NCBI GenBank assembly: GCA_944350445.1 | Contig: CALVOW010000005.1 | Location: 997 to 64,996, forward strand | Length of the DNA: 64,000 nucleotides | From: an uncultured Bacilli bacterium | GTDB lineage: Bacteria > Bacillota_I > Bacilli_A > RF39 > UBA660 | Reading direction: 5' to 3' | Part shown: in pieces, positions 7,315 through 34,392 of the stretch | Layout: every line of letters begins with the position of its first letter | Position numbering within the stretch: position 1 is the first letter of the stretch | Made by a program: the position numbers and the translations under genes | The notes under the pieces: model-generated | Told to the model about the DNA's origin: nothing | The model's database searches: none | The model's input: the letters and a program-made list of their open reading frames with translations, nothing else

Positions 7315-7866
7315 ATGGGAAAAGTTATTGCTATTGTTGGAATGTGTGGAAGTGGCAAAAGTGTTGCTAGTGATTATTTAGTTGCTATTGGCTATAAAAA
7401 GGTTTATTTTGGAGGAGTTACCATGGAAAAATTACAAGAAAATAACATGGAAATAACTCCTGAAAATGAAAAATATATGCGTGAAAAATTACGAAAAGAA
7501 TTAGGAATGGGAGCCTATGCGAAAATCTTACTTCCAAGAATTTTAGAATATCAAGCATATTCTAATGTGGTTTTAGATGGTCTTTATTCTTGGGATGAAT
7601 ATCTTATTTTAAAAGATGAATTAAAAGATAATTTAAGTGTTATAGCCATTGTTACTAATCGAAATATTCGTTATGAAAGGTTATTGGTTCGTGAAGTTCG
7701 ACCTTTAACTAACAAAGAAGCCGAAAGTCGTGATATTTCAGAAATTGAAAACTTAGCCAAAGGTGGCCCTATTGCTATGGCTGACTATTTTCTATTAAAC
7801 AATGCTGATAAAGATACCTATATTAAAAATTTACAAGAAATTTTAAAAGATATAGAATTGAGGTAG
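7315..7866 (+). CDS. P-loop nucleotide/nucleoside kinase-like protein (dephospho-CoA kinase / AAA-ATPase-like)
   Basis: 183 aa with Walker A GMCGSGKS at the N-terminus. First gene behind the Ala T-box, 2 nt upstream of alaS. Confidence 0.5.
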   Translation: MGKVIAIVGMCGSGKSVASDYLVAIGYKKVYFGGVTMEKLQENNMEITPENEKYMREKLRKELGMGAYAKILLPRILEYQAYSNVVLDGLYSWDEYLILKDELKDNLSVIAIVTNRNIRYERLLVREVRPLTNKEAESRDISEIENLAKGGPIAMADYFLLNNADKDTYIKNLQEILKDIELR

Positions 7867-7868
7867 TT

Positions 7869-10547
7869 ATGAAAAAATTAACAAGTTTAGAAATTAGAAA
7901 AATGTGGTGTGATTTTTTTAAAAGTAAAGGACATCAAATTGTTGAAAGTGCTCCTTTAATTCCCAAAGATGATGATTCACTTCTTTGGATTAATGCTGGA
8001 GTTACACCCTTAAAAAAATATTTTGATGGAAGTATTGTTCCTGATAATCGAAGAATTGCTAATATTCAAAAATGTATTCGTACGAATGATATTGAAAATG
8101 TTGGAGTAACAAGACGTCATCAAACCTTTTTTGAAATGATGGGAAATTTTTCAGTAGGTGATTATTTTCGTGATGAAGCTATAAGTATGGCTTTTGAACT
8201 TTTAACTAGTCCGAAATGGTTTAATATTCCCATTGAAAAACTATATTTTACAGTTTATACCAACGACCAAGAAACTTATGATAAATGGGTTGAGCTTGGG
8301 GTTTTAGAGTCCCATATTGTAAAACTTGATGATAATTTTTGGGAAATTGGAGAAGGTCCTTGTGGCCCAGATACCGAAATTTTCTTTGATCGAGGCGAAA
8401 AATATGACTACGATAATCGGGCTTTCGAACATTTTCAAAAAGGAGAAGACAACGAACGTTTTGTAGAGATTTGGAATAATGTTTTTAGCCAATTTAATGC
8501 CAAAGAAGGGGTAGAGAGAAGTAAGTACAAAGAACTTCCTAGTAAAAATATTGATACCGGAGCTGGTCTTGAAAGATGGGCTTGTGTTTTTCAAGATGTT
8601 GATAGCAATTTTGATACCGATTTATTCTTACCAATTATTAAACAAATTGAAGAATTAAGTGGCGCTTTATATGATGGCTCAATGCCATATAAAGTAATAG
8701 CTGATCATATAAGGGCTTTAACTTTTGCTTTGGCTGACGGAGCTAGTTTCGATAATGTTGGTCGTGGCTATATTTTAAGACGTCTTTTAAGAAGAAGTGT
8801 TCGATATGGAAGAAAATTAGATTTACAAGGAACTTTCATGTATAAATTAGTCGATTCCGTAGTTACTAATATGAAAGATGTTTATCCATATTTAATTGCT
8901 AAACAAGAATATATTGAATCTTTAATTAAAGAAGAAGAAGAATTATTCTTAAAAACCTTAGATAAAGGTGAAAAAAAATTATATGAATTAATGGATGAAT
9001 CTCTTGATAATAAAATAAGTGGAGCTGATGCTTTTAAATTATATGATACTTACGGATTCCCATTTGAACTAACTCTTGAGTATTTGGAAGAAAAAGGTTA
9101 TACAACTAGTCGATTAGAATTTGAAAAATGCATGAATAAACAAAAAGAATTATCGAAAAGTAATCAAAAACAAAACGAATCTTTTAAAAGTCAAAATGAA
9201 CTATTATTAAATTATAAAGATACTTCAGAATTTGTTTATGAAGTTTACGAACTAAAAGGAAAAATAATAGCTTTAATAGATAATGATAAGTTTGTTGATA
9301 GTATTTCCAAAGTTGGTTTAGTAGTTCTTGATAAAACGTGTTTTTATTCCAAATCAGGTGGGCAAATTAGTGATACCGGAATGTTAATTGGTAAAAACTT
9401 TAAAGCTAGAGTTCTAGATGTTTTTAAAGCTCCAAATGGTCAAAATATTCACAAAGTTAAAGTTTTAAGTGGAAAAATTGAAAAAGATGATTTCGTAGAT
9501 GAATTAATTGATAAAGATAAACGACTTAATATTGAAGCAAATCACTCTTGTGTACACATTTTACAGCTTGCTTTACAAAAGGTAATTGATAAAGATATTT
9601 ATCAAGCTGGAAGTAAAGTAACTGCTGATTATTTACGTTTTGATTTTAATTATCATGGAAAAATTACGGATGAAAATTTAATTCAAGTTGAAGAATTTGT
9701 AAATGATTATATTCAAAAAGAAATACCAAGGGAAACGAAAATTGTTGATTATAATAATATTGATAAAAATTCTGTTATGGCTCTTTTTACGGATAAATAT
9801 AAAGATAAAGTTAGAGTAGTGGAAATAGGTGATTCCAAAGAACTTTGTGGGGGATGTCATGTCAAAAACACCAAAGATATTTTGGAATTTGCTATTACTT
9901 CTTTTGAAAATAAAGGTAGTAATACTTATCGAATTATCGGAGCTACAAAAGACAATATCGAGACAAATTTATTATTAGCAGCTAAACCATATAACGATAA
10001 TATTGTCAAAAATATTATGAAAGCCAAAAGTATTATTTTAATGGCTAAAAAGGATGGTCTTAGTCTTACTTTTGATAGTAAATTAGATAATCAAAAACCA
10101 ACTAGATATAAAGATATTGTTGAATTAAAAAGAAAAGATAGTGATATTTCTAATTCCTTACATGAATTAGATAAAAAATATCAAAAATTAAAGTCAGAAA
10201 TGGTTGTAAGTAATTTAGACAAGTTTGAAAAAAATATTAAAAAAGTAGGGGATATTAATCTATTGCTTCAAAAAGTGTATGATGAAGATATTACCGATTT
10301 AAAAAATATTTTAGATACTCTTGCCAATAAATATCTAAATAGCTTTATTATGTTTGTTAATATAAAAGATAATATTCCAACAATTGTTGCAAGAAGTAAT
10401 TCACAAATTGATGCTTCAGAAATGGTCAAATTAGTTGCCAGTATGAACGGTGGTAATGGGGGAGGATCAAGTAAATTTGCAAGTGGAGCTGGAAAAACTT
10501 TAGAACATATTGATGAAAGCTTAAAAGAAATTGAAAATAGGATCTAA
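7869..10547 (+). CDS. alaS: Alanine--tRNA ligase
   Basis: 892 aa. Class II AlaRS N-terminus (FFKSKGHQIVESAPLIP..DDSLLWINAGV), editing-domain HSCVHILQ and CGGCHV, and a C-terminal DHHA1-like GGNGGGS. Confidence 0.95.
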   Translation: MKKLTSLEIRKMWCDFFKSKGHQIVESAPLIPKDDDSLLWINAGVTPLKKYFDGSIVPDNRRIANIQKCIRTNDIENVGVTRRHQTFFEMMGNFSVGDYFRDEAISMAFELLTSPKWFNIPIEKLYFTVYTNDQETYDKWVELGVLESHIVKLDDNFWEIGEGPCGPDTEIFFDRGEKYDYDNRAFEHFQKGEDNERFVEIWNNVFSQFNAKEGVERSKYKELPSKNIDTGAGLERWACVFQDVDSNFDTDLFLPIIKQIEELSGALYDGSMPYKVIADHIRALTFALADGASFDNVGRGYILRRLLRRSVRYGRKLDLQGTFMYKLVDSVVTNMKDVYPYLIAKQEYIESLIKEEEELFLKTLDKGEKKLYELMDESLDNKISGADAFKLYDTYGFPFELTLEYLEEKGYTTSRLEFEKCMNKQKELSKSNQKQNESFKSQNELLLNYKDTSEFVYEVYELKGKIIALIDNDKFVDSISKVGLVVLDKTCFYSKSGGQISDTGMLIGKNFKARVLDVFKAPNGQNIHKVKVLSGKIEKDDFVDELIDKDKRLNIEANHSCVHILQLALQKVIDKDIYQAGSKVTADYLRFDFNYHGKITDENLIQVEEFVNDYIQKEIPRETKIVDYNNIDKNSVMALFTDKYKDKVRVVEIGDSKELCGGCHVKNTKDILEFAITSFENKGSNTYRIIGATKDNIETNLLLAAKPYNDNIVKNIMKAKSIILMAKKDGLSLTFDSKLDNQKPTRYKDIVELKRKDSDISNSLHELDKKYQKLKSEMVVSNLDKFEKNIKKVGDINLLLQKVYDEDITDLKNILDTLANKYLNSFIMFVNIKDNIPTIVARSNSQIDASEMVKLVASMNGGNGGGSSKFASGAGKTLEHIDESLKEIENRI

Positions 10548-10548
10548 T

Positions 10549-11481
10549 ATGAATTGTAAGTTATACATTTTAGAAGGAGAAAATGAATTTTTAATTCAAA
10601 AAGAAATTGATTTACTCATTAAAAAAGTTAATTTAAAAAAAGAAGATTTAGAATTTATTTCTTATAATCTTTTAGATACTAATTTAGATAATGTTGTAGA
10701 AGATTTAGACACTTATAATATGTTTTTAAAGAAAAAAGTTATAACAGTAACTAATCCTATCTTTTTAGAAGAAAAAATTCCTGATAACTTTCCAATTAAA
10801 AGCTTTTTAAAATATATGAAGAATCCTAGTGATAATATTTTAATTTTTATTACTAAAAAAGTTAATAATCGCTTAAAACTTACAAGTGAAATTTTAAATT
10901 ATTTTACACTTATTAAAATAAAAGAGATAAGTCCTTTTGCCTTTTTAAAGGAAAATATTCAAGGATACAAAATGGATTCTTCCCTTATTTCCTATTTTTT
11001 AAATAAAGTAGGAACAGATTTTCATAATATTTTTCAAGAAATCGAAAAATTAAAAATTTATAAAATTAAAACCAAAGAGATTTTGAAAGAAGATATTGAT
11101 TTAATTACCAATTCCAATATCGAAGCTAATATTTTTGATTTAATTGAAGCAATTATTAAAAAAGATAAGAAAAAAAGTTATCAGTTATACAATCATTTTA
11201 TTAGTAATGGGACCGAGATTTTTCAAATTTTAATTCTTTTAGCTAGTCAAATCAGATTAATTTATAATGTTAAAACTTTGGCTAATTTCGATGATTTTTC
11301 GATAAGTCAAATTTTAGAAGTAAAAGAATATCCTGTAAAATTAGCACGAAGTAGGGGATATAGTTATTCTAAACAAGAACTTTTGCATCTTTTACATGAG
11401 CTTTCTTTAATGGATGAAGATATTAAAAGTGGTAAGCAATTACCGGATATTTCTTTTTTAACTTTTATTATGCAAATGTAA
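10549..11481 (+). CDS. holA: DNA polymerase III delta subunit
   Basis: About 310 aa with typical HolA C-terminal helices (IFDLIEAIIKKDKKKSYQLY..LLASQIRLIYNVK). The start is moved from TTG 10531 to ATG 10549. Confidence 0.7.
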   Translation: MNCKLYILEGENEFLIQKEIDLLIKKVNLKKEDLEFISYNLLDTNLDNVVEDLDTYNMFLKKKVITVTNPIFLEEKIPDNFPIKSFLKYMKNPSDNILIFITKKVNNRLKLTSEILNYFTLIKIKEISPFAFLKENIQGYKMDSSLISYFLNKVGTDFHNIFQEIEKLKIYKIKTKEILKEDIDLITNSNIEANIFDLIEAIIKKDKKKSYQLYNHFISNGTEIFQILILLASQIRLIYNVKTLANFDDFSISQILEVKEYPVKLARSRGYSYSKQELLHLLHELSLMDEDIKSGKQLPDISFLTFIMQM

Positions 11482-22842: not shown

Positions 22843-23096
22843 TAATAAAAGCAACATTAAACTAGATGTTAATTCAAATAATAATAATATTATATATAAT
22901 ATTTTGATATTTATACGCCCAAAATTATTTTCAATTCAACTTCATATAATATATATTATGTTAACTTCTGTAATTGGTATATTTAAACCTTATTACCCTA
23001 CTTTTCCTCCTTTCGTCACAGAACAGTTTAAGGTACCTATCCGGGCGTATATGCTATCAGTACACTACTTTATAGGTAGTGTATAATAAAAGCACT
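22843..23096 (-). ncRNA. Unclassified structured element, copy A (homologous to 24676-24893)
   Basis: Read on the minus strand, directly after the stop of ORF 23097-23327. Hairpin acactac-N7-gtagtgt (23062-23082) is followed by actgat. A long-range pairing joins tatacgccc with gggcgtata (about 22912-22920). It shares 16-mer and 10-mer blocks with copy B, and its core is locally GC-enriched. Confidence 0.4.
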
Positions 23097-23327
23097 CTAT
23101 TTTTGAGCACTATTTTTACAGATGTTAATAATTTCTAACAATTCTTTTTCACAACCTTCTGCTTGTTTATAAACAACCTTAAAATCATTAGGATTTTTTA
23201 GATTTTCTATATTGTTATAATTAGTTTTTAACAAACATATTAACCCATTCATTTTTTTTAAATCATTTTTATATTCTTTTCTAATATAACTATCTACTTC
23301 TTCTAATAAATGATATTGTTTATTCAT
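23097..23327 (-). CDS. Small phage-derived ORF (76 aa), candidate immunity-type protein
   Basis: Its ATG overlaps the TGA of the upstream gene fragment (ATGA). The position is equivalent to ORF 24894-25091 in the large insert. No family recognised. Confidence 0.4.
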   Translation of the reverse strand: MNKQYHLLEEVDSYIRKEYKNDLKKMNGLICLLKTNYNNIENLKNPNDFKVVYKQAEGCEKELLEIINICKNSAQK

Positions 23328-23506
23328 TTGGCTTTTTCACCCTCTTTAACTAAAATTATACCACGATTTAATATAATATACATATCATTCTGCTTAACAA
23401 CATCATAATTTGATAATATTGTTGTTGCACTTTCATTTGAATTCATATAATCAAGAATTGTTGTCACTTTATCGCCGTATTTATTATAATATTCTTCCAG
23501 ATTATT
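23324..23506 (-). pseudogene. 3'-terminal 60 codons of a foreign (phage-like) gene, truncated exactly at the last CRISPR repeat
   Basis: The minus-strand frame is open from the repeat boundary: NNLEEYYNKYGDKVTTILDYMNSNESATTILSNYDVVKQNDMYIILNRGIILVKEGEKAK*. It has no start codon of its own. Confidence 0.5.
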
Positions 23507-23507
23507 G

Positions 23508-24436
23508 GTTTTAATACCATTTAAAATGTCATAGAACTAAAACTTATACTCTACATTATCAGTATAAATCTCTGTTTTAATACCATTTAAAATGTCATAG
23601 AACTAAAACTCAATTGTCGACAGTTTGGAGGTGATAAACGTTTTAATACCATTTAAAATGTCATAGAACTAAAACCGAAATTAATAATATCAAAAAAACC
23701 AGTGGTATATCGGAAACAAGTCCGAATCGACCTACTGGTTTTTCTGAAAATAATATACCACAATCTAGCAATAATGTCAAATCGGATACATCTACTAAGT
23801 ATTCTATGCAAGAAATTCAAGATAATACACTGTTAAATAATTCTAAATCAAACCAACAACCACAAAATTCCACAAAGTCTAAACATACTGATTATATAAA
23901 TAGTGAAGTAAATTATTTAGCTGATCAAATAGATAACATAAATAATAATGATAAAGTGACATTTGAAGATATAGATGAAATTGTTTACAATTCTCCATAT
24001 TATAAGTTTTAATACCATTTAAAATGTCATAGAACTAAAACTATTAATTTCCTCCTTTTAAATCATAAATGGTTTTAATACCATTTAAAATGTCATAGAA
24101 CTAAAACCTGGTAGCCATTTTCAACTTTTACTATTTGTTTTAATACCATTTAAAATGTCATAGAACTAAAACACTATTAAAGATCCATTTTATAATCAAA
24201 CAGTTTTAATACCATTTAAAATGTCATAGAACTAAAACAACTAAAATGTCATTTCCAATGAAGTTATAGTTTTAATACCATTTAAAATGTCATAGAACTA
24301 AAACATAATCTAAAATGGACTATTGACATATAACGTTTTAATACCATTTAAAATGTCATAGAACTAAAACAAATTATTATAATAACCAAGAACACTTTCT
24401 GTTTTAATACCATTTAAAATGTCATAGAACTAAAAC
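23508..24436 (-). CRISPR. CRISPR array, leader-distal segment: 10 identical 36-bp repeats
   Basis: Repeats start at 23508, 23574, 23640, 24006, 24072, 24137, 24203, 24269, 24335 and 24401. The repeat in transcription sense is GTTTTAGTTCTATGACATTTTAAATGGTATTAAAAC. Spacers are 29-30 nt, except for one 330-nt segment. Confidence 0.95.
23676..24005 (+). other. Oversized (330-nt) inter-repeat segment: internal fragment of a foreign coding sequence
   Basis: Bounded by perfect repeats (23640-23675 and 24006-24041). One plus-strand frame is open across the whole segment (EINNIKKTSGISETSPNRPTGFSENNIPQSSNNVKSD..NYLADQIDNINNNDKVTFEDIDEIVYNSPYYK). Confidence 0.8.
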
Positions 24437-24611
24437 TTAAATCCTCTTTACTTGGTAAGTTTCTAGTCTTTCTAGCTACTTCTTTTTTTAAAGCTTCATT
24501 AAATTCTTCTTGAGTAGCGAAAGCTTTTTCCACTTTTTCTTCTGTAGTCTGTGTTTCTACATTTTCAGTTACTTTTTCTTCTGTAACATTTTGAACATTT
24601 TCTTGTTCCAT
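24437..24611 (-). pseudogene. 5' fragment of a phage scaffold-like gene, truncated by a CRISPR repeat
   Basis: RBS gaagggag is followed by ATG 24611. The acidic N-terminus MEQENVQNVTEEKVTENVETQTTEEKVEKAFATQEEFNEALKKEVARKTR resembles Firmicute phage scaffold proteins. The last residues of the tracked ORF are encoded by the repeat. Confidence 0.5.
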
Positions 24612-24675
24612 AAATTCTCCCTTCTTTTAAGTCATTAAGTTGGACTTAACCATTCTTTATTGTCTTTATGTTGGA

Positions 24676-24893
24676 CATAATAAAAGAACGTATTTCTACG
24701 TCCTGAAGTGCGTTTATAAGCACTGTACTGACGATAGAATGCCGTTTATTCCCACTTACCCTACTCTGTGTTATCAGCTGGTTCACATTTTGCCTTATCT
24801 AGTGGGTTTAGTTGAATAGAATACGTCTATTCCTGTGCCTCGCGTCATCAGTACACTACTTATAAATATAAAGTAGCGCATAATAAAAGAGCA
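24676..24893 (-). ncRNA. Unclassified structured element, copy B (between the small ORF and the scaffold gene)
   Basis: Minus strand. The ORF terminator (aagagca..tgctctt + ttattat) comes first, then hairpin gcgctactt-N9-aagtagtgt (24853-24879). A closing helix joins gtactga..cg with cgtcagtac. Internal hairpins are gaataga/tctattc, cccact/agtggg and agtgc/gcact. A GAAA-capped terminator ggacgta-gaaa-tacgttc + ttttattat closes it, then the RBS of the scaffold gene about 60 nt later. Confidence 0.45.
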
Positions 24894-25091
24894 TTATTTT
24901 GCTCTTAATTTCATTTCTTTTATATCTTTAATATAAATATTATAATTACCTACATATATTGAAGAATCATCTTCATCTTCGTCAAAAAAAATACCAGTTA
25001 TTTTTTCTCCACTATTTAAAATCACTTCAACTTCTTTTTGAAAGCAATTTAAATACCTTTGTGCAAATTCTTTATTTGTCATTATCATCAC
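24894..25091 (-). CDS. Small phage ORF (65 aa) downstream of the MuF-type gene; candidate immunity protein
   Basis: Overlaps the MuF-like stop by 20 nt. Acidic 65-aa product MMIMTNKEFAQRYLNCFQKEVEVILNSGEKITGIFFDEDEDDSSIYVGNYNIYIKDIKEMKLRAK. The assignment rests on position only. Confidence 0.4.
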   Translation of the reverse strand: MMIMTNKEFAQRYLNCFQKEVEVILNSGEKITGIFFDEDEDDSSIYVGNYNIYIKDIKEMKLRAK

Positions 25092-25899
25092 CTCTTATGT
25101 TTTTAAACTGTGCATTGTTGCTTGCTGGCACAATATGAACACCATTTTTTTCAGAATAATGAATTACAAATGAATTAGTTTCTTCTTCAACATTATAATT
25201 TTTATTAATATAAACTCCAATCACTTTATTTGTACTACATATTTCTTTATTTTGAATATTGCCTTTTATAGTTAATGGTGTGTATCCCTTTGTTGCATAT
25301 TCATTTACCAGTTTTTGTTCTTCTTTTATATCAATATTGAAATAACTCTTTCCTTGAATATATTTTTCACTATTTATATTGTGTTTCAGTTGCTTATCTT
25401 CATTTATCTTTATCAAATTTGGATTTTCTTTAATTTTATTATTTCGTAAAAGCAATTGTTTATATCCATTTAATGCTACTTCATCTGTAACATTATTATA
25501 CACCTTTTTTGCTTCTTTTAGCAAGTTTTCTTTTTTTTCTTTTTTATTTTTCCAATTTTGATAAGTTTTAGTACTTTTTTCTTTAACTTTAGGACTTAAC
25601 TCAGTGCTGCCAATCCATTCATTAGCAGTAATTCTAGTTCTACCAGTCTTATCTAAGAAACTTAAATATTCTTTTTTAGTGTTACTTAAACTATTTTGTT
25701 TTATTTTTATATAAGTAGGCTCTGCTCCGGTTTGTTTAAGCATTGCTATTTCTCTTTTTTTGTTGCGAATAGCTCTTTCGTATTGACGTTGTCTTTGTTT
25801 TTCTACATAAGCCTCATCATTTTCTTTTTTTGTAAAGTCCATTTCTCTTTTTTTTGATAAACCAGGAACAAACATATATCTTGAATGACCACAATTAAT
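25072..25899 (-). pseudogene. Exon 2 of a phage MuF/SPP1-gp7-type minor capsid gene with a C-terminal toxin-like extension (exon 1 absent)
   Basis: Starts INCGHSRYMFVPGLS (NC(R/G)H motif at the end of the MuF domain). YVEKQRQRQYERAIRNKKRE is typical of Firmicute minor capsid proteins. The tail ..NSFVIHYSEKNGVHIVPA is like MuF-fused nuclease/toxin modules. The tracked Met at 25902 is an artefact of the intron end. Confidence 0.6.
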
Positions 25900-26199
25900 C
25901 ATTTCTTGTTAGCTTATATTTCTATAAGTGTCGGACTATATCTTCCTCTAATAGAGGCATCGCATTTCAAATAACGTATCAATAGTTATCTTACATGGCT
26001 AAACTCATCACCATTAGTCTCTACACCTTTTTATAAATATTTCCACACATAACCATAAGCTGTTTTTCGATAAGTATGTCCTTTCAAAACCTTTACTATA
26101 ATGGAACTTGCGTTTAAAGATTTTGTCATGTTGTTTTTTATTAACCATCTTTCGGCTTCTCTAATTCCATTAAATTCCATTACTAATTTATTGTTTTTA
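25900..26199 (-). mobile_element. 3' portion of a group I intron (subgroup IA-like) carrying a homing endonuclease remnant, truncated by a CRISPR repeat
   Basis: Minus strand. P7 5' strand ggtgtagagac, then two hairpins (atgg..ccat and ataac..gttat, P7.1/P7.2-like). P8 is cctct-atta-gagg, with J8/7-like aagatatagtc and P7 3' strand cgacac. P9 is cttata-gaaa-tataag, with terminal G at 25900. The boundary is independently confirmed by spacer 27028-27057. Confidence 0.75.
26031..26198 (-). pseudogene. C-terminal 55 codons of an intron-encoded homing endonuclease (NUMOD/HTH-type DNA-binding tail)
   Basis: The frame is open from the repeat boundary: KNNKLVMEFNGIREAERWLIKNNMTKSLNASSIIVKVLKGHTYRKTAYGYVWKYL*. 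The pattern ..EA...L......I..VL.G...TA.GY.W.Y is the usual C-terminus of phage GIY-YIG/HNH homing endonucleases. Confidence 0.55.
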
Positions 26200-28215
26200 G
26201 TTTTAATACCATTTAAAATGTCATAGAACTAAAACATTTCTTTTTTGCTTTTTCCATTTTTATTTGTTTTAATACCATTTAAAATGTCATAGAACTAAAA
26301 CGCATTTGCAACTACTGATTTGTTTTCTGCAGTTTTAATACCATTTAAAATGTCATAGAACTAAAACTTTACTCTACCTACAACACCATTTCTAGCAGTT
26401 TTAATACCATTTAAAATGTCATAGAACTAAAACTACACAATAACACAATAACGCCAAAAGCAAGTTTTAATACCATTTAAAATGTCATAGAACTAAAACC
26501 ATAAGTTGTAATATCTATAAATTCATCTGGTTTTAATACCATTTAAAATGTCATAGAACTAAAACATTTCTTTTTTGCTTTTTCCATTTTTATTTGTTTT
26601 AATACCATTTAAAATGTCATAGAACTAAAACGCATTTGCAACTACTGATTTGTTTTCTGCAGTTTTAATACCATTTAAAATGTCATAGAACTAAAACACT
26701 GACTTATGCTATACTATATTTGTAATTGTTTTAATACCATTTAAAATGTCATAGAACTAAAACCGACAACTTTAATCTTCCAAAACTTCAATTGTTTTAA
26801 TACCATTTAAAATGTCATAGAACTAAAACTAACACCTATGTATTGATAAAACATTTCAGGTTTTAATACCATTTAAAATGTCATAGAACTAAAACCTACG
26901 ACGCGGTTGGCTTCTCGCTTGAGGAGTTTTAATACCATTTAAAATGTCATAGAACTAAAACCTAGTAAATGTTTAACCCCCTTGATATCTTGTTTTAATA
27001 CCATTTAAAATGTCATAGAACTAAAACGAATATTTGGTATTAATTGTGGTCATTCAAGTTTTAATACCATTTAAAATGTCATAGAACTAAAACACATCTA
27101 CATAACTAAACCCTTGTGGCGTAGTTTTAATACCATTTAAAATGTCATAGAACTAAAACCATTGCACTTATTTTATGACTAATATAGGAGTTTTAATACC
27201 ATTTAAAATGTCATAGAACTAAAACATAATTACATTTTCTAATTTCGATAGGTAAGTTTTAATACCATTTAAAATGTCATAGAACTAAAACAGAATATGA
27301 ATTTTACGAAATCAATTATATGTTTTAATACCATTTAAAATGTCATAGAACTAAAACAGGTGTTAAGACTGCTACAGAGGTAGTATCGTTTTAATACCAT
27401 TTAAAATGTCATAGAACTAAAACAGTGTAATGATGTATGAAAAATTACCTTTTGTTTTAATACCATTTAAAATGTCATAGAACTAAAACATTAATATAAG
27501 CGTCACTATTCCAAGAACAGTTTTAATACCATTTAAAATGTCATAGAACTAAAACTAAGTAGCTTTTAATGAAGATTTAACTTCTGTTTTAATACCATTT
27601 AAAATGTCATAGAACTAAAACTGATTAGCTATTGTTCCTAATGGCGGAGGTGTTTTAATACCATTTAAAATGTCATAGAACTAAAACATCATACATGATC
27701 ACATATTCATCGGGATGGTTTTAATACCATTTAAAATGTCATAGAACTAAAACTATTAGACAATTATATTGTCTCACATATTAGTTTTAATACCATTTAA
27801 AATGTCATAGAACTAAAACAAACATACTTAATTCTTTCTATAACCTTTTGTTTTAATACCATTTAAAATGTCATAGAACTAAAACATATCAATCATTTTA
27901 CTACTATCTTCGGGTGTTTTAATACCATTTAAAATGTCATAGAACTAAAACAATAGAATTGGAGTTTATTGTGTCAATGCAGTTTTAATACCATTTAAAA
28001 TGTCATAGAACTAAAACTCTTTGTTTACTAGCTTATATGTAATTCCGGTTTTAATACCATTTAAAATGTCATAGAACTAAAACGCGACTACTAATCAATC
28101 GACGACTACTAATGTTTTAATACCATTTAAAATGTCATAGAACTAAAACTTATAATCTCTAATTTGAAGCGAATAGCTCGTTTTAATACCATTTAAAATG
28201 TCATAGAACTAAAAC
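26200..28215 (-). CRISPR. CRISPR array, leader-proximal segment: 31 identical 36-bp repeats and 30 spacers of exactly 30 nt
   Basis: Repeats start at 26200 + 66k for k = 0..30. The sequence is the same as in segment 1. It is transcribed from the leader at 28216-28296 toward lower coordinates. Confidence 0.97.
26530..26661 (-). repeat. Duplicated repeat-spacer-repeat-spacer block (identical to 26200-26331)
   Basis: Spacers atttcttttttgctttttccatttttattt and gcatttgcaactactgatttgttttctgca each occur twice (26236/26566 and 26302/26632). Confidence 0.9.
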
Positions 28216-28296
28216 CTCAAATGGTTTTAATTCTAAAAGATCCATAGAAAATCAGTTATTTTAAATGATATTTATTTCTACAACATTCTATAATTA
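28216..28296 (-). promoter_or_regulatory. CRISPR leader (between the csn2 stop and the first repeat)
   Basis: 81-nt AT-rich segment. In transcription sense it ends ..ccATTTGAG directly before repeat 1. It contains a degenerate repeat-like copy at 28224-28256. Confidence 0.7.
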
Positions 28297-28974
28297 TTAT
28301 AACACAAATTCTTCTAATTCATTATCAATAATTAATTTATTTTCATAATTAAGTTTTACTCCATAGCTTTGACTATCAATTAAAATTATTGTTATATTAT
28401 TATAAATAGCATATTTATATAATTCTTCTAATTCTTCTTTCGATAATAACTGTTTTAAGTTTACCAAAAACAAAATTTCATTTGTTTTTAAAACAGACTC
28501 TAAGTCAATTAACAAAAGTAAATTATCAAGTAAATCATTTTTATCATTTATAGATACTTTAAATAATTTAATAATATCATCAATTATTAAATCTTCGTTT
28601 AAAATTAATGGAAGATCAATATTTTTTAATATATTAGCTACACTTTTATACATTTTTTTATAAATATTAAATATTTGTTGTTTGTCTATGTCGCTTAAAT
28701 TATTAATTATTTTTTTATTTAAAGAATTAAGATTTTTTTTAGAATTTAAATCAAGATCAAAAAAATTAATATATATTTCAATTTTTGATTGAAGATTTAT
28801 TTCTTCATTTTGATTATCATAAAAATATAGTTCATTTGTATAATCACCATTTTTTATAAGATATAAATCACTAATAAATTTATAAAACATTTTCTTGTTT
28901 TCAATTTCAACAACTTGAATATTACTATCATTTAAAAAAATATTATTATTAAAATAATTCACTCGTAAATTCAT
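28297..28974 (-). CDS. csn2: CRISPR-associated protein Csn2 (type II-A signature)
   Basis: 225 aa, the last gene of the cas operon, directly followed by leader and array. Size and N-terminus (MNLRVNYFNNNIFLNDSNIQVVEIENKKMFYKF) are typical of canonical Csn2. Confidence 0.85.
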   Translation of the reverse strand: MNLRVNYFNNNIFLNDSNIQVVEIENKKMFYKFISDLYLIKNGDYTNELYFYDNQNEEINLQSKIEIYINFFDLDLNSKKNLNSLNKKIINNLSDIDKQQIFNIYKKMYKSVANILKNIDLPLILNEDLIIDDIIKLFKVSINDKNDLLDNLLLLIDLESVLKTNEILFLVNLKQLLSKEELEELYKYAIYNNITIILIDSQSYGVKLNYENKLIIDNELEEFVL

Positions 28975-29291
28975 AAAACAACCAACCTATCTTCACTATT
29001 AATTATTTTGGTATTTTCACAACCGGAAATAAATTCAATTTTTGAATATTGTTTTTCCGTTATCGTTAAAACTTGAATAATCCCTTTTTTAGGAGCTTTT
29101 TTTCTAATTCTTTCAATTAATAATTTAGATTGTTCACTGTTTAAAACTATTTTAGAATAAACAGATTCTTGCATCATTAAAAAGCCTTCATTTATTAAAA
29201 ATTTTCTAAACATTATATAATTTTTTCGATCTTTTAAATAAACGTTTGGTAAATCAAAGAAAACAATTGTTCGCACTACTCTATCCCTCAT
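28971..29291 (-). CDS. cas2: CRISPR-associated endoribonuclease Cas2
   Basis: About 106 aa starting MRDRVVRTIVFFDLP (Cas2 beta1 with conserved Asp). The tracked ORF extends to 29321, but ATG 29291 abuts the cas1 stop. Confidence 0.85.
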   Translation of the reverse strand: MRDRVVRTIVFFDLPNVYLKDRKNYIMFRKFLINEGFLMMQESVYSKIVLNSEQSKLLIERIRKKAPKKGIIQVLTITEKQYSKIEFISGCENTKIINSEDRLVVL

Positions 29292-30150
29292 AAATAAAAT
29301 CCTTATATTCTTTATTTTCACTTAAAACCTTAAAAGTATTTTTCACATAAAGTTCAATAATATCTTTTAAAGTATATTTTTTTGAATTAAAAGTATAAAT
29401 ATTATTAAAAATATTAATTATATCAAGTTTTAAATTACTATCTAATTCTCTCTCTTGATTATAATAAACAAAAGCATCAATTATAACTCGAAATGGTTCC
29501 ATTAAATCACAAGCCAAATTAAAAGGGTTAAATTCATTTTTATGGTGAATTCCTAATTGTGTTAAATACCCATTGTTAGTTATTTCTTTACTAATTGTTG
29601 ATAATAAAATAGCATAGCCATAATTTAATTTAGCATTTATGATGTCGTTATTACCTCTTGAAAATTTTTTTCCAAATAAGGCATTAAAATAAACCTTAGA
29701 AGCATGTCCTTCGCGATTACTTTTATCCCCTACTCCCACTTCATCAACATAACTAAAAACAAGATTTGCTTGTTTACTTTTAATTTTTTTTAGTAAAAAA
29801 GCTTGATTTATAATTTTATTTTTAACAATTAAAGTCCATAAATTATCTTTATTTTTTAATGTCCATTTTGTTTGTTCAATGATTTTTTTACTGGAATTAT
29901 GCCGAGAATAAAATGGCTGTATTTGACCATAAGGATTATGTTTTTCATCGCAAAAAATAATATTAATTTTGTTATCAGTTAATTCTTTCAATAAATAAGA
30001 AGAAATAGATACAGATATAGAATCAACTATAATTGTATCTATTTCTGATAAGTGAATATATTTTTCTTCAATATCTTTTTTAACGACTAAAAATCTATTC
30101 TTGTAACTTATTTTGGCTTGATTAGCGATGACAACTGTTCTAAAACTCAT
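29281..30150 (-). CDS. cas1: CRISPR-associated endonuclease Cas1 (type II)
   Basis: 289 aa, overlapping the cas9 stop. Typical type II Cas1 N-terminus (SFRTVVI..AKISYKNRFLVVKK) and a conserved C-terminal helical domain (GIHHKNEFNPFNLACDLMEPFR). Confidence 0.9.
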   Translation of the reverse strand: MSFRTVVIANQAKISYKNRFLVVKKDIEEKYIHLSEIDTIIVDSISVSISSYLLKELTDNKINIIFCDEKHNPYGQIQPFYSRHNSSKKIIEQTKWTLKNKDNLWTLIVKNKIINQAFLLKKIKSKQANLVFSYVDEVGVGDKSNREGHASKVYFNALFGKKFSRGNNDIINAKLNYGYAILLSTISKEITNNGYLTQLGIHHKNEFNPFNLACDLMEPFRVIIDAFVYYNQERELDSNLKLDIINIFNNIYTFNSKKYTLKDIIELYVKNTFKVLSENKEYKDFIYEG

Positions 30151-33100
30151 ATCGACTCTCTTTAAGACCAGCAGGAGATTTAAATATTAAAGTTCCAGAC
30201 TTAATATTTATCCCATTTTGTCGTCCTATTCGACTACTCATTTTTTTATCATGAAGTTTTATTTTATCTAAATTTGCATTAGTTGAATTACATTTTAACA
30301 TTTTAAATATTTCTTGTATAACTTCTACTTTCGAAATACTTGTTTTATCATCATTGTTTATTTGCAAATTAAGATTTTGAAATTTATTTAATGATTTAAG
30401 TAATTTAAATTTTTCTAATTCATTACTATATAATGGATAAGAAAGTTCAATTTTATCTAATATTAAATCATATAATTCAATTATTTGTTTATCAAAAATT
30501 TCTAACCAATATTTTTTACCTTCGAAATTATTTTTATAACTTGGAATTCTTTGATTAAAAATAAAATTCAATAAATTTTTATATTTAATTTGTTCTTCTT
30601 TAGTTAACTTAAATTCAATATTATTAATAACTTCAGCAGATTTAGTACCACAACCAGTTATACAACATTTTTGATTTTTATATATTATTTCAATATTAAA
30701 AGGTATTCTATCTTTTTCTATAATATAATTATCACAGTTTAACTCTTTTATAATATAATTATTAATTTCTTCTTTTAAATTTTTCTTTTTAGTTAAAATA
30801 ACTGGTATTCCTATTAATGCTTTTTCTTCTTTATTCTTTTTTTGATACTTAACTAATATCATATATGAATATTGACAAGATGTATAACCACCATATATTT
30901 TAGGATCTAAGTTTTCTTTGATATTTATTAAAGATTTATTAGAAGTTGCTTTATAAATAGTTTCTTTATAAAATGCACCAGTATTAATAAAAGTTTTTTT
31001 ACTTATTAAAATATCATTTCGATATAAAGTATTGGCAATTTTTTCAATAAATTCCTTGGTATTAAATAATACTTCTCCAGTTTTTTCATCAATTTTTAAA
31101 TAATTTTCATCAATACTATTAATAACATAACCATATTTTAATTCATTATAACGTTTTTCAGTAAGTAATTTTTTAACTAATTCAAAAAATTCTGATTTAT
31201 TTAAAGTTCTTTTTAAATATTTTGTTTGATAAATTCCCAAAGTAATTGCTAAATAAGCATCATGAGCATGATGGTAATCATTTAAATTACGATATTTATA
31301 CAATTTAAATCTTTGACGGTAATTACTAGAAATATTGGCTTTTAAATAAATTACATTGGTATTTTTATATAAGCTTTTTAAAATATTAGCTACATGTTTA
31401 GTAATTTGTCTAGTTTCAACTAATTGACGATTGATAAATCCTTCAATATCTTTGTCGGTAAAATCAGTACGCATTAAATTGTTGTACTTCTTAGAAGACA
31501 TTAATTCTATTTCTTTTAAATGTTTCCACCAACCACTTTGTTTTTGAAATTCCCTTGGTAAAACTAGGTTATCACGTTTAATTTGATTTTCTTCTTTTAA
31601 TACCAAGGCTTTATTATCAATAGAATCATCTTTAATTAAAGTTTGAGGTAAGATATGATCAACTTCATATTTATCTGTATATAAGTCTTCAAAAATAATA
31701 GATGTACCAGAATATAAACTTTTACCTTCTTGTAAGAAGTATAAAAATAATTTTTCTTTATCAATTTTTTCAACATTTTTAAGTTTATCTTTTAATTCTT
31801 GATAATTTTTAATTTCGGTTTTATTTTGGTCATATATATTTAATAGTCTTTTTTTCCGATCATCTTTTCTAACTTTCTTTTCATCACTTCTTGACATTTC
31901 TATACTAATATTCTTTGGTTCGTATCCCATATAATCAATTATTTCTTGAACTACTTTTAAAGCTTGATAAATTCCTCGTTTAGTAGCAGGGGAAGTAGCC
32001 AAATCACTAACTAAGGAGTAATCTAATTTCGTAATTTCTTCTTGATTATTTTCTTCTTGAATAAATTTTTGAAAATTATATTGTGGATTATTGATAATTT
32101 GCATGAAATTTTCTTTGGTTTCCCACATTAAATCCATTATTGATTTAAAAGTATTACTTTCTTCATCATAATAGTATTTTGTTTCTAACAATTTTCTTGA
32201 TAAATTACTCCATCCTTTATAATTTTTAGTTAAAATAGTATTCATTTTTGGTAATAAATTAGGATATAATTCTGTAATTTCTTCTTTTAATATTTCTTTA
32301 TCTTCTAAAACAGTTATTAATTCTATAATTTTTTCAGCGTCATCTATTGTTAAATTTGTATCTTTAAAAATACCATTATCACCAAAAAAATCTATATAAG
32401 AATCCATATTATTAGCAAATTTTAAATCAGATGAATAACCATCAATTCTAATATCAGCACTATCTAAATCAATATACATTGATATTTCATTGGTTGTTCT
32501 TAAATAATTTTGAAATTTTTTATCGGTTAAACTACCTTTATTTTTTAAGAAAAATTCTTTATATATTTTATGTTGAAATGCTAAATCTATTTCTTTATCA
32601 TTTATTTTAATTTGCTTTAATTCATTTAAAACTTTAAATTTTGAATATAAAAGAGAATTATTAGGAATAGCATATTCATCTAATAAATAACTAGATTTAC
32701 CTATCATTCTATAAATAAAATTTTTAGCTGATTTTCGAATATCAACAACTTCTTCAAAATTATAAGGCGTTATTTTTCCTTTACTTTTTCTTACCATCCA
32801 AGCAAAAGGATGATTTTCATTTGCAACTAAAGGTCCAACATAATAAGGAATTCGAAATTTTAAAAGTTTAACAATTTTATATTCGCCTTTTACTTTTTCT
32901 AACAAAAAATGATAATATTGTCCTTGATTTTCAAGAATAATTTTTAGTTCGGCTAGATTTAATTGATAAGGAAATTTACCATTTTGGGTATCAGCTATTC
33001 TTGGCAAGAAAGAACTATTTTCCATACTATCTAATATCTTTTTAATTTGTTCTTGATTTTCCTTAGTAGTTATTTGTTCCAAAACTTTTTTTAATTCATT

Positions 33101-34267
33101 AGTAAATTCGGTATAAGTTAATTGATTTCTTATATATTTAGTATAAACAGATAATTCTTCTTTATTATCTTTAATTTTATCTTTAAATAGTCTTCTAAAA
33201 TTACTTTGATAAGGACGAATTAAATCTTTAATAAGGTGTAAATCCTTCTTTTGTTTATTATAATTAGCAACCATTAAATTAGAAATACTAGCACTATCTT
33301 GATTTTTAAAAAGTTGTTTTAAAGAAATCATATCATATAACTCTTTAAAAGCATTAATTACTTCAAATTCTTCTGGTAATTCACTTTGTAATTTATCTAT
33401 TTCCTTATCTATATTTATATCTGTAAAATCTATCTTTTTAACATTTTCGATATTTTTAGCAAATAAATTTTCTAAATTAGCATTACTGCCAGCTAATAAA
33501 GATGCTATTTCTTTACTAACTTTATTGTGAAATTGCGTTGTTAATTCTTTTATAATTGCTTTCTTTTTATCATTTTTATTTTGAATATAAAAGGCATTTT
33601 CTAATTCTTTTAGATTAATATTATCAATACTTGGTTCTTGATTATAAATATCTGTACATATTTCAAAAATTGTATTTAAAACTTCTTCTAATTTTTCTCG
33701 AACATTGATTTTTTCGATATTAAATTCGTCCATATTATAATTAAAATTACCACGATATTTAATAATATGATGAATTGCTAAGTAAATAAGGCGAAGATCC
33801 TCTTTTTCTTTATTAATAATTAATTTTTTTCTTAAATGATAAATAGTTGGATATTTATTATCTACGCAACTAATCATTCTTTTATTTTGATAAATTACTT
33901 CTCTTTTTAAATTACTAAAAATTTCTTTTTTATCGTAATTAGTTAAAGGTATTTTTTTATTTTTAATATCATCAGGACTAATATTACTTGTTTTTAATTT
34001 TTGAAAAAAAGTAGGATCAACTTTATTTATTTCTTCTCTAAACTCATCTTGTAACAATCTAATTCTCTCCCGTCTTCTGTCATATCTTCTCCTTGTACTT
34101 CGAAAATTTCTTCTATCAACAGCTGTTGTTGCCATGTCAAATAATCTAACTCCCCATAAAGATTTTTGTTTATTACCTTTTTTAATTATGTTAAAATTAT
34201 CATCAATAACAGCATAACCTACTGATGCTGTTCCAATATCAAGTCCAATATTATAATCTTTTTGCAT
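30140..34267 (-). CDS. cas9: CRISPR-associated endonuclease Cas9 (type II-A, SpCas9-sized)
   Basis: 1375 aa. RuvC-I IGLDIGTASVGYAV, an Arg-rich bridge helix RRNFRSTRRRYDRRRERIRLL, HNH YEVDHILPQ..DNKALV, and RuvC-III NDYHHAHDAYL. Confidence 0.97.
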   Translation of the reverse strand: MQKDYNIGLDIGTASVGYAVIDDNFNIIKKGNKQKSLWGVRLFDMATTAVDRRNFRSTRRRYDRRRERIRLLQDEFREEINKVDPTFFQKLKTSNISPDDIKNKKIPLTNYDKKEIFSNLKREVIYQNKRMISCVDNKYPTIYHLRKKLIINKEKEDLRLIYLAIHHIIKYRGNFNYNMDEFNIEKINVREKLEEVLNTIFEICTDIYNQEPSIDNINLKELENAFYIQNKNDKKKAIIKELTTQFHNKVSKEIASLLAGSNANLENLFAKNIENVKKIDFTDINIDKEIDKLQSELPEEFEVINAFKELYDMISLKQLFKNQDSASISNLMVANYNKQKKDLHLIKDLIRPYQSNFRRLFKDKIKDNKEELSVYTKYIRNQLTYTEFTNELKKVLEQITTKENQEQIKKILDSMENSSFLPRIADTQNGKFPYQLNLAELKIILENQGQYYHFLLEKVKGEYKIVKLLKFRIPYYVGPLVANENHPFAWMVRKSKGKITPYNFEEVVDIRKSAKNFIYRMIGKSSYLLDEYAIPNNSLLYSKFKVLNELKQIKINDKEIDLAFQHKIYKEFFLKNKGSLTDKKFQNYLRTTNEISMYIDLDSADIRIDGYSSDLKFANNMDSYIDFFGDNGIFKDTNLTIDDAEKIIELITVLEDKEILKEEITELYPNLLPKMNTILTKNYKGWSNLSRKLLETKYYYDEESNTFKSIMDLMWETKENFMQIINNPQYNFQKFIQEENNQEEITKLDYSLVSDLATSPATKRGIYQALKVVQEIIDYMGYEPKNISIEMSRSDEKKVRKDDRKKRLLNIYDQNKTEIKNYQELKDKLKNVEKIDKEKLFLYFLQEGKSLYSGTSIIFEDLYTDKYEVDHILPQTLIKDDSIDNKALVLKEENQIKRDNLVLPREFQKQSGWWKHLKEIELMSSKKYNNLMRTDFTDKDIEGFINRQLVETRQITKHVANILKSLYKNTNVIYLKANISSNYRQRFKLYKYRNLNDYHHAHDAYLAITLGIYQTKYLKRTLNKSEFFELVKKLLTEKRYNELKYGYVINSIDENYLKIDEKTGEVLFNTKEFIEKIANTLYRNDILISKKTFINTGAFYKETIYKATSNKSLINIKENLDPKIYGGYTSCQYSYMILVKYQKKNKEEKALIGIPVILTKKKNLKEEINNYIIKELNCDNYIIEKDRIPFNIEIIYKNQKCCITGCGTKSAEVINNIEFKLTKEEQIKYKNLLNFIFNQRIPSYKNNFEGKKYWLEIFDKQIIELYDLILDKIELSYPLYSNELEKFKLLKSLNKFQNLNLQINNDDKTSISKVEVIQEIFKMLKCNSTNANLDKIKLHDKKMSSRIGRQNGINIKSGTLIFKSPAGLKESRYEF

Positions 34268-34300: not shown

Positions 34301-34392
34301 GTAGTCTTAATACCATTTAAGATGTCATAGAGAGTTAAAATAAAGGTTTACCCTAAACATTAACTTATGAAACTGGTTAGCCAGTTTTTTTT
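34301..34392 (+). ncRNA. tracrRNA
   Basis: Divergent from cas9. The anti-repeat cttaataccatttaagatgtcatagag matches the plus-strand repeat apart from two substitutions. A nexus-like agttaaaataaagg follows, then the terminator hairpin actgg-ttag-ccagt and T8. A tataat -10 box lies at 34282-34287. Confidence 0.8.

Follow-up and report, generated by a model that had tools for sequence, protein, structure and literature searches.

Recombination between a spacer and its target joins phage DNA to type II-A clustered regularly interspaced short palindromic repeat (CRISPR) arrays (Varble et al. 2019 Nat Microbiol; Watson et al. 2018 mBio), and two summaries of this work (PMC8616872; bioRxiv 10.1101/2020.10.09.333658) hold promiscuous recombinases of the phage responsible. 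In laboratory staphylococci, the transient CRISPR-phage hybrids are, according to the same summaries, packaged and transduce CRISPR loci (Varble 2019 via PMC8616872 and bioRxiv 10.1101/2020.10.09.333658). Here we describe a 1763-nt block of phage DNA that occupies one spacer position (24437..26199, minus strand) of the type II-A array in a 64,000-nt stretch of chromosomal DNA (i.e., the window; GC content ~25%) from an uncultured Bacilli bacterium (contig CALVOW010000005.1). An earlier examination of the letters of the window (i.e., the original prediction) had already noticed this block. It shares with the laboratory process the joining of phage DNA to a type II-A array and, by the reading preferred below, the use of a spacer as homology. 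The laboratory hybrids are, however, transient, whereas the block is a stable two-sided replacement that is fixed in natural populations, inherited and recurrent across lineages.

The prophage PhiAP1.1 integrates in the CRISPR repeats of Streptococcus pyogenes via an integrase and a repeat-mimicking phage attachment site, attP (Varble et al. 2020 preprint). Common to PhiAP1.1 and the block are phage DNA between the repeats of a type II-A array, a polar effect on the downstream spacers and the duplication or loss of spacers. While PhiAP1.1 is a whole inducible prophage, the block is a gene-cutting fragment with spacer-length ends flanked by a protospacer adjacent motif (PAM), without an integrase and without a repeat-like site in the phage. 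Insertion sequences, which come with a transposase and inverted repeats and are not restricted to particular sites, likewise leave arrays with a unit far longer than a spacer, but none of their features are found in the block.

The MuF polymorphic toxins of temperate phages combine a MuF/Phage_min_cap2 N-terminal region with variable C-terminal toxins (i.e., Ntox50, ADP-ribosyltransferase, PBECR), followed by a small variable open reading frame (ORF) (Jamet et al. 2017, PMC5576092). The fusion of minor-capsid protein and toxin and the small ORF are both present in the block; MuF toxins were, however, described in phages and prophages, while here just the 3' part of the gene and the downstream ORF are found, within CRISPR arrays. 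Orphan toxin-immunity modules reportedly also lie downstream of contact-dependent inhibition (CDI) and Rhs loci. The fragments described here resemble such modules in pairing a 5'-truncated toxin C-terminus with an intact putative immunity gene and in forming strain-variable cassettes at a fixed locus with conserved flanks (contigs L041 vs. L105; the window vs. contig L029), but the CDI/Rhs modules derive from a secretion-system effector, whereas ours derive from a phage structural gene and lie in a CRISPR array or its trailer. Laboratory recombination and whole-prophage integration are what the accessible literature holds; fixed kilobase-scale phage blocks as array units were not found in it, and to that extent the remark on novelty in the original prediction stands. 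The block appears to be a natural, fixed and recurrent form of the process known from the laboratory, and orphan immunity to capsid-borne toxins, if shown, would be new.

The phage block and its distribution among strains

The two repeats that bound the block (24401-24436 and 26200-26235) are identical to the remaining 39, as had been claimed, and its length of 1763 nt is at odds with the 29-31-nt ruler of canonical Cas1-Cas2 spacers. The insert is one uninterrupted stretch of phage DNA and is collinear with the phage group that spacers of the same array match. In the donor-type siphophage contig L045 (34.4 kb, from ENA; large terminase of the Terminase_3 family), the gene order is terminase, portal, minor-capsid exon 1 (301 aa), GIY-YIG endonuclease (203 aa), exon 2 (228 aa), small ORF, scaffold-position gene (174 aa) and major capsid. 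The block is collinear with L045 from block base 1, with 90% identity over the endonuclease C-terminus, the 3' part of the intron and the conserved part of exon 2; the alignment breaks at the toxin cassette and resumes at 93% through the last base.

Both ends of the block cut genes precisely at the repeats. A GIY-YIG homing endonuclease gene is 5'-truncated at the leader-proximal repeat, where its C-terminal 55 codons and stop are left (26031..26198, minus strand; 90% nucleotide identity with the gene for the 203-aa endonuclease of L045), and the scaffold-position gene is cut at the distal repeat after the first 58 codons of a 174-aa gene (24437..24611, minus strand). The genes and the gene order given in the original prediction were thus recovered part by part, together with the truncations, and the block strand is the cas strand, in agreement with the stated orientation along the precursor of the CRISPR RNA (pre-crRNA); the polarity of the array was checked by strain comparison. 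The original parts list nevertheless overlooked an Ntox50 domain, another oversize unit (330 nt), a phage fragment in the trailer and the missing degenerate terminal repeat. ORF and family scans of the insert gave phage genes alone and no transposase; a transposon origin, which the original prediction had also dismissed, was rejected.

All data are short-read metagenome assemblies. The ORF at the junction of insert and repeat (65 aa; it begins in the scaffold fragment and reads on into the repeat that follows) is found on 92 contigs (112 index blocks). Many human gut metagenome projects contributed these contigs, whose assemblers include metaSPAdes and MEGAHIT at k 87-141. Given that such k values are much larger than 30, a shared 30-mer would be unable to produce a chimeric path. 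The entire unit is present on 15 contigs, where it measures 1762-1770 nt (1734 nt in one strain) and occurs in eight variants that are 0-3 changes apart, and the fragments are contiguous with chromosomal genes. With its junction recurring in many independent assemblies, the 1763-nt phage block in the array is confirmed and is not the chimera against which the original prediction had cautioned. Apparent 119-nt units in some contigs were rejected as 100-N scaffold gaps, and several odd units in the species survey as N gaps or overlooked degenerate repeats.

The leader-side spacers are almost wholly different between strains, while the insert invariably lies in the old part that they have in common. 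It is already present in every sampled strain except L029, which has a single repeat. Given that new spacers lie leader-side, the block acts as an anchor unit: it arose before the sampled strains diversified and was inherited while the leader gained spacers. The spacer comparison covered 261 unique spacers from 30 contigs, and neither of the terminal 30-mers of the block (i.e., A and B, described below) nor that of the trailer fragment was found among them as an ordinary spacer. Thus, the comparison of strains, which had been suggested as a way to the ancestral array, placed the block in the old shared part but revealed no array in which A or B served as an ordinary spacer.

No second copy of the block segment was found elsewhere in the window, and none of the eight phage loci compared contained a repeat-like sequence at up to 10 mismatches, which argues against a resident prophage with phage-borne repeats, a further caution in the original prediction. 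Among the INPHARED public phage genomes there was no close DNA relative of the insert, just distant protein relatives, and neither the Ntox50 cassette nor the 30-mer A with its PAM was matched in IMG/VR or in JGI metagenomes by exact-word scans. The search for a donor therefore yielded the donor-type phage L045 but not the exact phage with Ntox50.

Ends of the block and its proposed origin

The leader-proximal end of the block is the 30-mer A (TAAAAACAATAAATTAGTAATGGAATTTAA; 26199 to 26170), which is followed by TGG (26169 to 26167); the combined 33 nt (26167..26199, minus strand) are identical in L045 (9704-9736). The distal end is the 30-mer B (CTAGAAACTTACCAAGTAAAGAGGATTTAA; 24466 to 24437), which forms the last 30 nt of the scaffold-position fragment; the insert ends with the 20 nt ACCAAGTAAAGAGGATTTAA. 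In the phages L045 and L003 and in the insert of the locus L001, B is followed by AGG, and the distal end thus has a source protospacer with a PAM, as a canonical spacer does. When the 261 spacers were mapped on related phage contigs, NGG followed 7/11 protospacers of the window species, compared to a background of 2.5% (p=1.7e-9), and we infer that NGG is the PAM of the window Cas9. L001 (IMGVR_UViG_3300029782_000304), found in IMG/VR, is a type II-A locus of a related species with a related repeat; NGG follows 9/10 protospacers of its lineage, with eight perfect matches on phage L002. It should be noted that in another lineage (L041 and L089) the protospacers are followed by AAG-like sequences, not by NGG; the closely related Cas9 proteins of this clade thus appear to differ in PAM.

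A head-module block of 4655 nt lies inside the array of L001 (L001 7946-12600). Its proximal 30-mer is followed by TGG, and at its distal end TGG follows in the phages L002, L039 and L045, with 60/60 nt identical upstream. The trailer fragment of the window begins with a 30-mer followed by CGG, and that of L029, which is of the same species, with a 30-mer followed by TGG. Overall, NGG is found at 6/6 ends in the lineages that use it, compared to a background of 3.8% (~3e-9), and at +31 of the leader-proximal end in 4/4 fragments of these lineages. All ends are in the sense of the CRISPR RNA (crRNA), and each two-sided insert has both protospacers on one phage strand, which fits a replacement of array DNA by phage DNA because such a replacement requires it. 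The check proposed in the original prediction, whether the terminal 30-mers are protospacers with a PAM, thus gave a positive answer (A with TGG, B with AGG).

Given that NGG is found exactly one spacer length from each junction, the 1763-nt unit is best explained as a scar of spacer-protospacer recombination, to which we assign a probability of about 0.72; of the two origins offered in the original prediction, this is the one that NGG at both ends favors. The array would formerly have held ordinary 30-nt spacers A and B, of which A would have matched the intron-borne GIY-YIG gene of an L045-like siphophage and B, on that same strand, the scaffold gene of this phage. Homologous recombination at A and B would then have swapped the intervening array DNA for 1.7 kb of phage DNA, either by a double crossover or by integration of the whole genome at one spacer and later deletion at the other, probably with the involvement of phage recombinases. 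The structure found is repeat-[A+PAM...phage...B]-repeat. From what is known of type II-A crRNA biogenesis, A would yield no crRNA, as no repeat follows it, so that the resident A with its PAM should not be self-targeted and the structure should be self-tolerant, while B, still flanked downstream by a repeat, could still give a crRNA. None of the 261 spacers matches the resident fragments in full, and 0/10 of the phage-matching spacers of L001 lie inside its own insert.

Several points weigh against this origin. The ancestral state with A and B as spacers is a deduction and was not found among the 261 spacers, the exact donor with Ntox50 is absent from the collections searched, and the evidence comes entirely from short-read metagenome assemblies. 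A length of 30 bp is short for RecA-type recombination. NGG at +31 is lacking in two of three units of contig L102 (u1 and u3), in the unit of contig L068 and in the 330-nt unit of the window; of these, the 330-nt unit is the one from a species for which NGG was deduced as the PAM. Trailer fragments are bounded by a repeat on one side only and need an additional event.

The other origin offered in the original prediction, the integration of an untrimmed prespacer by Cas1-Cas2-Csn2, is improbable in our view. Here, Cas9 would have taken part as well, and PAM-linked processing at two sites would have set the ends of a single long molecule. The adaptation genes are intact, the two flanking repeats are perfect, as after normal integration, and the distal end is PAM-adjacent like that of any type II-A spacer. 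This origin, however, predicts a PAM at the distal end only and gives no reason for the NGG that 4/4 cases show on the same strand, at positions +31 to +33 from the proximal end, and it leaves the trailer fragments, repeat-bounded on one side, unexplained. In the integrase, the two 3' ends sit at a distance of about one spacer length, and full-site integration of 1.7-4.7 kb would be unexpected given this spacing.

It is similarly improbable that a hybrid phage-CRISPR molecule was made in another cell, transduced and recombined into this array via repeat or cas homology. Packaged CRISPR-phage hybrids from spacer-mediated recombination have been reported, and the donor-type phage has a large terminase of the Terminase_3 family. 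Such an import would still require a spacer-protospacer crossover first and is a variant of the best explanation more than a true alternative to it; the data do not separate a local from an imported origin. Far less probable is the entry of a temperate phage into a repeat via a repeat-mimicking attP, in the manner of PhiAP1.1, followed by deletion of most of the prophage. Such entry is documented for type II-A arrays, with deletions and duplications of spacers, and the window does have a spacer duplication beside the insert. The block ends, however, within genes (for the homing endonuclease and the scaffold) instead of at an att site, each end is a 30-mer flanked by a PAM, no integrase is found in the insert, which holds 1.8 kb of head genes and no complete prophage, and related phages have no repeat-like site even at 10 mismatches. 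An assembly chimera that joined host spacers A and B to a co-occurring phage through shared 30-mers would likewise give PAM-flanked 30-mer ends, and every sequence comes from short-read assembly, some contigs being scaffolds whose N gaps look like units of 119 nt, but this is hardly credible given the identical junctions on 92 contigs from many samples with at least two assemblers and k up to 141, the lack of a free phage with the Ntox50 cassette in the collections searched, the fact that A and B never occur as normal units and the continuity of the fragments with chromosomal genes.

Spacer-protospacer recombination, if it formed the block, would provide natural, population-level evidence that spacers serve as recombination substrates, for which the evidence was previously mainly from laboratory transduction experiments. 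It would also mean that an array can take up kilobases of phage genes and yet avoid autoimmunity, as the very spacer whose target is imported falls silent through the crossover. Tools that recognize spacers by length would overlook such an array or break it up, and would take the host CRISPR locus for viral DNA; the contig with L001 was probably flagged as viral in IMG/VR owing to the 4.65-kb phage block in its array.

Toxin tails and small ORFs in the phage fragments

Exon 2 of the minor-capsid gene (25072..25899, minus strand; called as an ORF of 276 aa from a fortuitous ATG at 25902) matches positions 273-365 of 366 of Phage_min_cap2 and positions 1-92 of 92 of Ntox50 in Pfam (79 bits for the latter), as well as PHROG 581. 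The Ntox50 domain takes up residues ~160-276 of this ORF. Given that the C-terminus of Phage_min_cap2 is fused here to a complete Ntox50 domain, the gene encodes a MuF-type polymorphic toxin. The C-terminal toxin varies as in other members of this group, with ADPrib_exo_Tox in L068 and L102 u3 and PBECR in the homologue P0010. The toxin stop is overlapped by a 65-aa ORF (24894..25091, minus strand), which is intact in 8/8 sequence variants and is probably the immunity gene, judging from its position and from the co-variation of toxins and small ORFs described below; Pfam and PHROG family scans of the small ORFs downstream of the toxins gave no family match. A cargo in which this putative immunity gene is co-transcribed with the pre-crRNA may aid the persistence of the block.

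Surveys by protein searches with the fragment proteins and with Csn2 revealed ten fragments of phage origin that lie within type II-A arrays or at their ends, from five lineages of uncultured gut Bacilli or Mycoplasmatota-like metagenome-assembled genomes. These are the two of the window, the variant of L029, the block of L001, two in L041/L105, three in L102 and one in L068. The trailer fragment of the window (23004..23507, minus strand, ending at ~23004) abuts the last repeat with its terminal 30-mer (23507 to 23478, then CGG) and consists of a truncated toxin C-terminus (23507-23324), a 76-aa ORF (23327-23097) and a terminator (23111-23091). In L029 (8256-8800), an unrelated cassette of toxin tail and small ORF follows the single repeat and is joined to the same trailer sequence as in the window. 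The L041/L105 lineage, near Candidatus Pelethosoma, has two alternative cassettes at one trailer site; the flanks are 85-99% identical and the cassettes unrelated. The three fragments of L102 are separate units of 1487, 966 and 475 nt, and that of L068 is the last unit of its array, with 670 nt.

Each of the ten fragments (10/10) starts with a 5'-truncated MuF/toxin ORF of the Ntox50, ADP-ribosyltransferase or an unassigned type, and in each (10/10) a complete small ORF comes next, with an adjacent or overlapping start; all are co-oriented with the array. Homologous toxin tails, such as those of the window trailer fragment and of L102 u2, which are 90% identical, pair with homologous small ORFs, and different toxins with different small ORFs. 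Such joint change of toxin type and small ORF is what toxin-immunity pairs would show. The protospacers are distributed across the phage regions compared and do not cluster at the toxin cassette, and random segments would rarely all hold a 200-300-nt gene in one orientation. There are hints that selection keeps orphan immunity genes, and a resident remnant could, as a compatible and not exclusive reading, serve as a homology landing pad for the exchange of cassettes.

Given that all ten fragments carry a toxin tail and a small ORF co-oriented with the array, and that cassettes vary between strains at the same site, we tentatively suggest that type II-A arrays of this clade may be a site for the capture and expression of orphan immunity genes against MuF toxins, a possibility to which we give less than even odds. 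If it is true, spacer-guided recombination would import the cassette and the leader promoter would transcribe it with the pre-crRNA, and the cell whose Cas9 destroys the phage DNA would also be shielded from any toxin protein delivered with that DNA. The recurrent cargo thus leads to a testable idea, namely that CRISPR immunity and immunity to capsid toxins are coupled physically and functionally.

The 330-nt oversize unit of the window (23676..24005, plus strand) contains a 110-codon open frame antisense to the crRNA and has no NGG at +31. It is a fragment of a mobile-element gene of the polyvalent-protein-like kind (weak LPD3 match in a homologue). Homologues lie in oversize units of L099 (704 nt) and L073 (224 nt). 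These three units occur in either orientation, have no complete ORF and depart from the pattern of the ten phage fragments.

The region between the 65-aa ORF and the scaffold-position gene (24680..24906, minus strand) is structured, with an intrinsic terminator at 24906-24887, a terminator-like hairpin at 24704-24685 and a stem of ~26 bp between them. The phages L045 (~11000-11200), L002 and L003 and the block of L001 share the ~26-bp stem between the small ORF and the scaffold gene, and a terminator hairpin follows it. Three pairs of the stem show compensatory changes, and the stem encloses a hypervariable interior of 60-120 nt; searches of this conserved element against Rfam gave no match. 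L005 carries in the same slot a tRNA-like sequence, which was recognized by eye. Elsewhere in the head module, L045 encodes between its portal and minor capsid genes (7738-7887) a 49-aa protein with a Pfam match to the Acb2/Tad1-hairpin family of anti-CBASS/Thoeris sponges.

Probable group I intron and organization of the type II-A locus

The segment from 26030 to 25900 (25900..26030, minus strand) is probably the 3' part of a group I intron, with an R-like element GTAGAGACTAAT, an S-like element AAGATATAGTCC and a terminal G at 25900. The 3' splice site follows G25900; comparison of the intron-containing L045 with the intronless L002 and L003 places T at the end of exon 1 and G at the end of the intron. 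The intron interrupts a gene that is contiguous in L002 and L003, and it carries an endonuclease ORF (GIY-YIG in L045). Rfam gave no group I intron match, whether for the window, the insert by itself or the complete L045 intron. Its support comes via a relative: window positions 25962-26040 are ~80% identical to a stretch of a Staphylococcus phage, which matches Rfam RF00028 over its full length (40.9 bits, E 3.5e-9, under the gathering score of 50).

One ordinary spacer of the array (27028..27057, minus strand) lies across the intron insertion site, with 11 nt of exon 1 and 19 nt of exon 2, and is an exact match to the intronless minor-capsid allele. Intron-carrying phages, including the donor type, thus lack its protospacer. 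A homing intron would in this way serve as an escape from CRISPR, and CRISPR pressure could promote the spread of the intron. A spacer of L025, ATTTGAAATGCGATGCCTCTAGTCTAGTAG, matches the 3' region of the intron (window ~25972-25952) over its PAM-distal 21 nt and then diverges, and this partial match suggests that the species also targets variant introns; the seed mismatch would prevent self-targeting of the resident insert.

The genes of the type II-A locus were assigned by precomputed Pfam matches on identical proteins from other contigs. The minus strand of the window holds a complete locus with tracrRNA, cas9, cas1, cas2, csn2, leader and an array of 36-nt repeats, in which the array lies downstream of csn2. 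The tracrRNA anti-repeat (34310..34333, plus strand, divergent from cas9) is a 24-nt repeat-like match with three mismatches, the sole one outside the array. The minus-strand operon (28297..34267) consists of cas9 (30140-34267; Cas9 domains), cas1 (29281-30150; Cas_Cas1), cas2 (28971-29321; CRISPR_Cas2) and csn2 (28297-28974; Cas_Csn2), each an ORF with its Pfam match. Among species-representative genomes, which do not include the species of the window itself, the best csn2 identity is 69%.

A leader of ~80 nt (28216-28296) lies between csn2 and the array (23508..28215, minus strand), which has 41 perfect 36-nt repeats (minus-strand repeat GTTTTAGTTCTATGACATTTTAAATGGTATTAAAAC) with a normal period of 66. 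Its units are 38 of 29-31 nt and the two oversize ones of 1763 and 330 nt. The csn2-proximal ends vary between strains while the distal end is common to them, which confirms the polarity of the array. There is no degenerate terminal repeat, and a truncated ORF abuts the last perfect repeat.

Directly leader-side of the 1763-nt block, two repeat-spacer units (spacers 24 and 25) form an exact duplication of 168 nt (26200-26367 = 26530-26697). Spacer 24 perfectly matches phage L002, with a TGG PAM, ~100 nt past the distal end of the block. In one strain, L025, an rve/Mu-type transposase gene (L025 4430-5770) follows an old spacer downstream of the insert and is an ordinary interruption by a mobile element.

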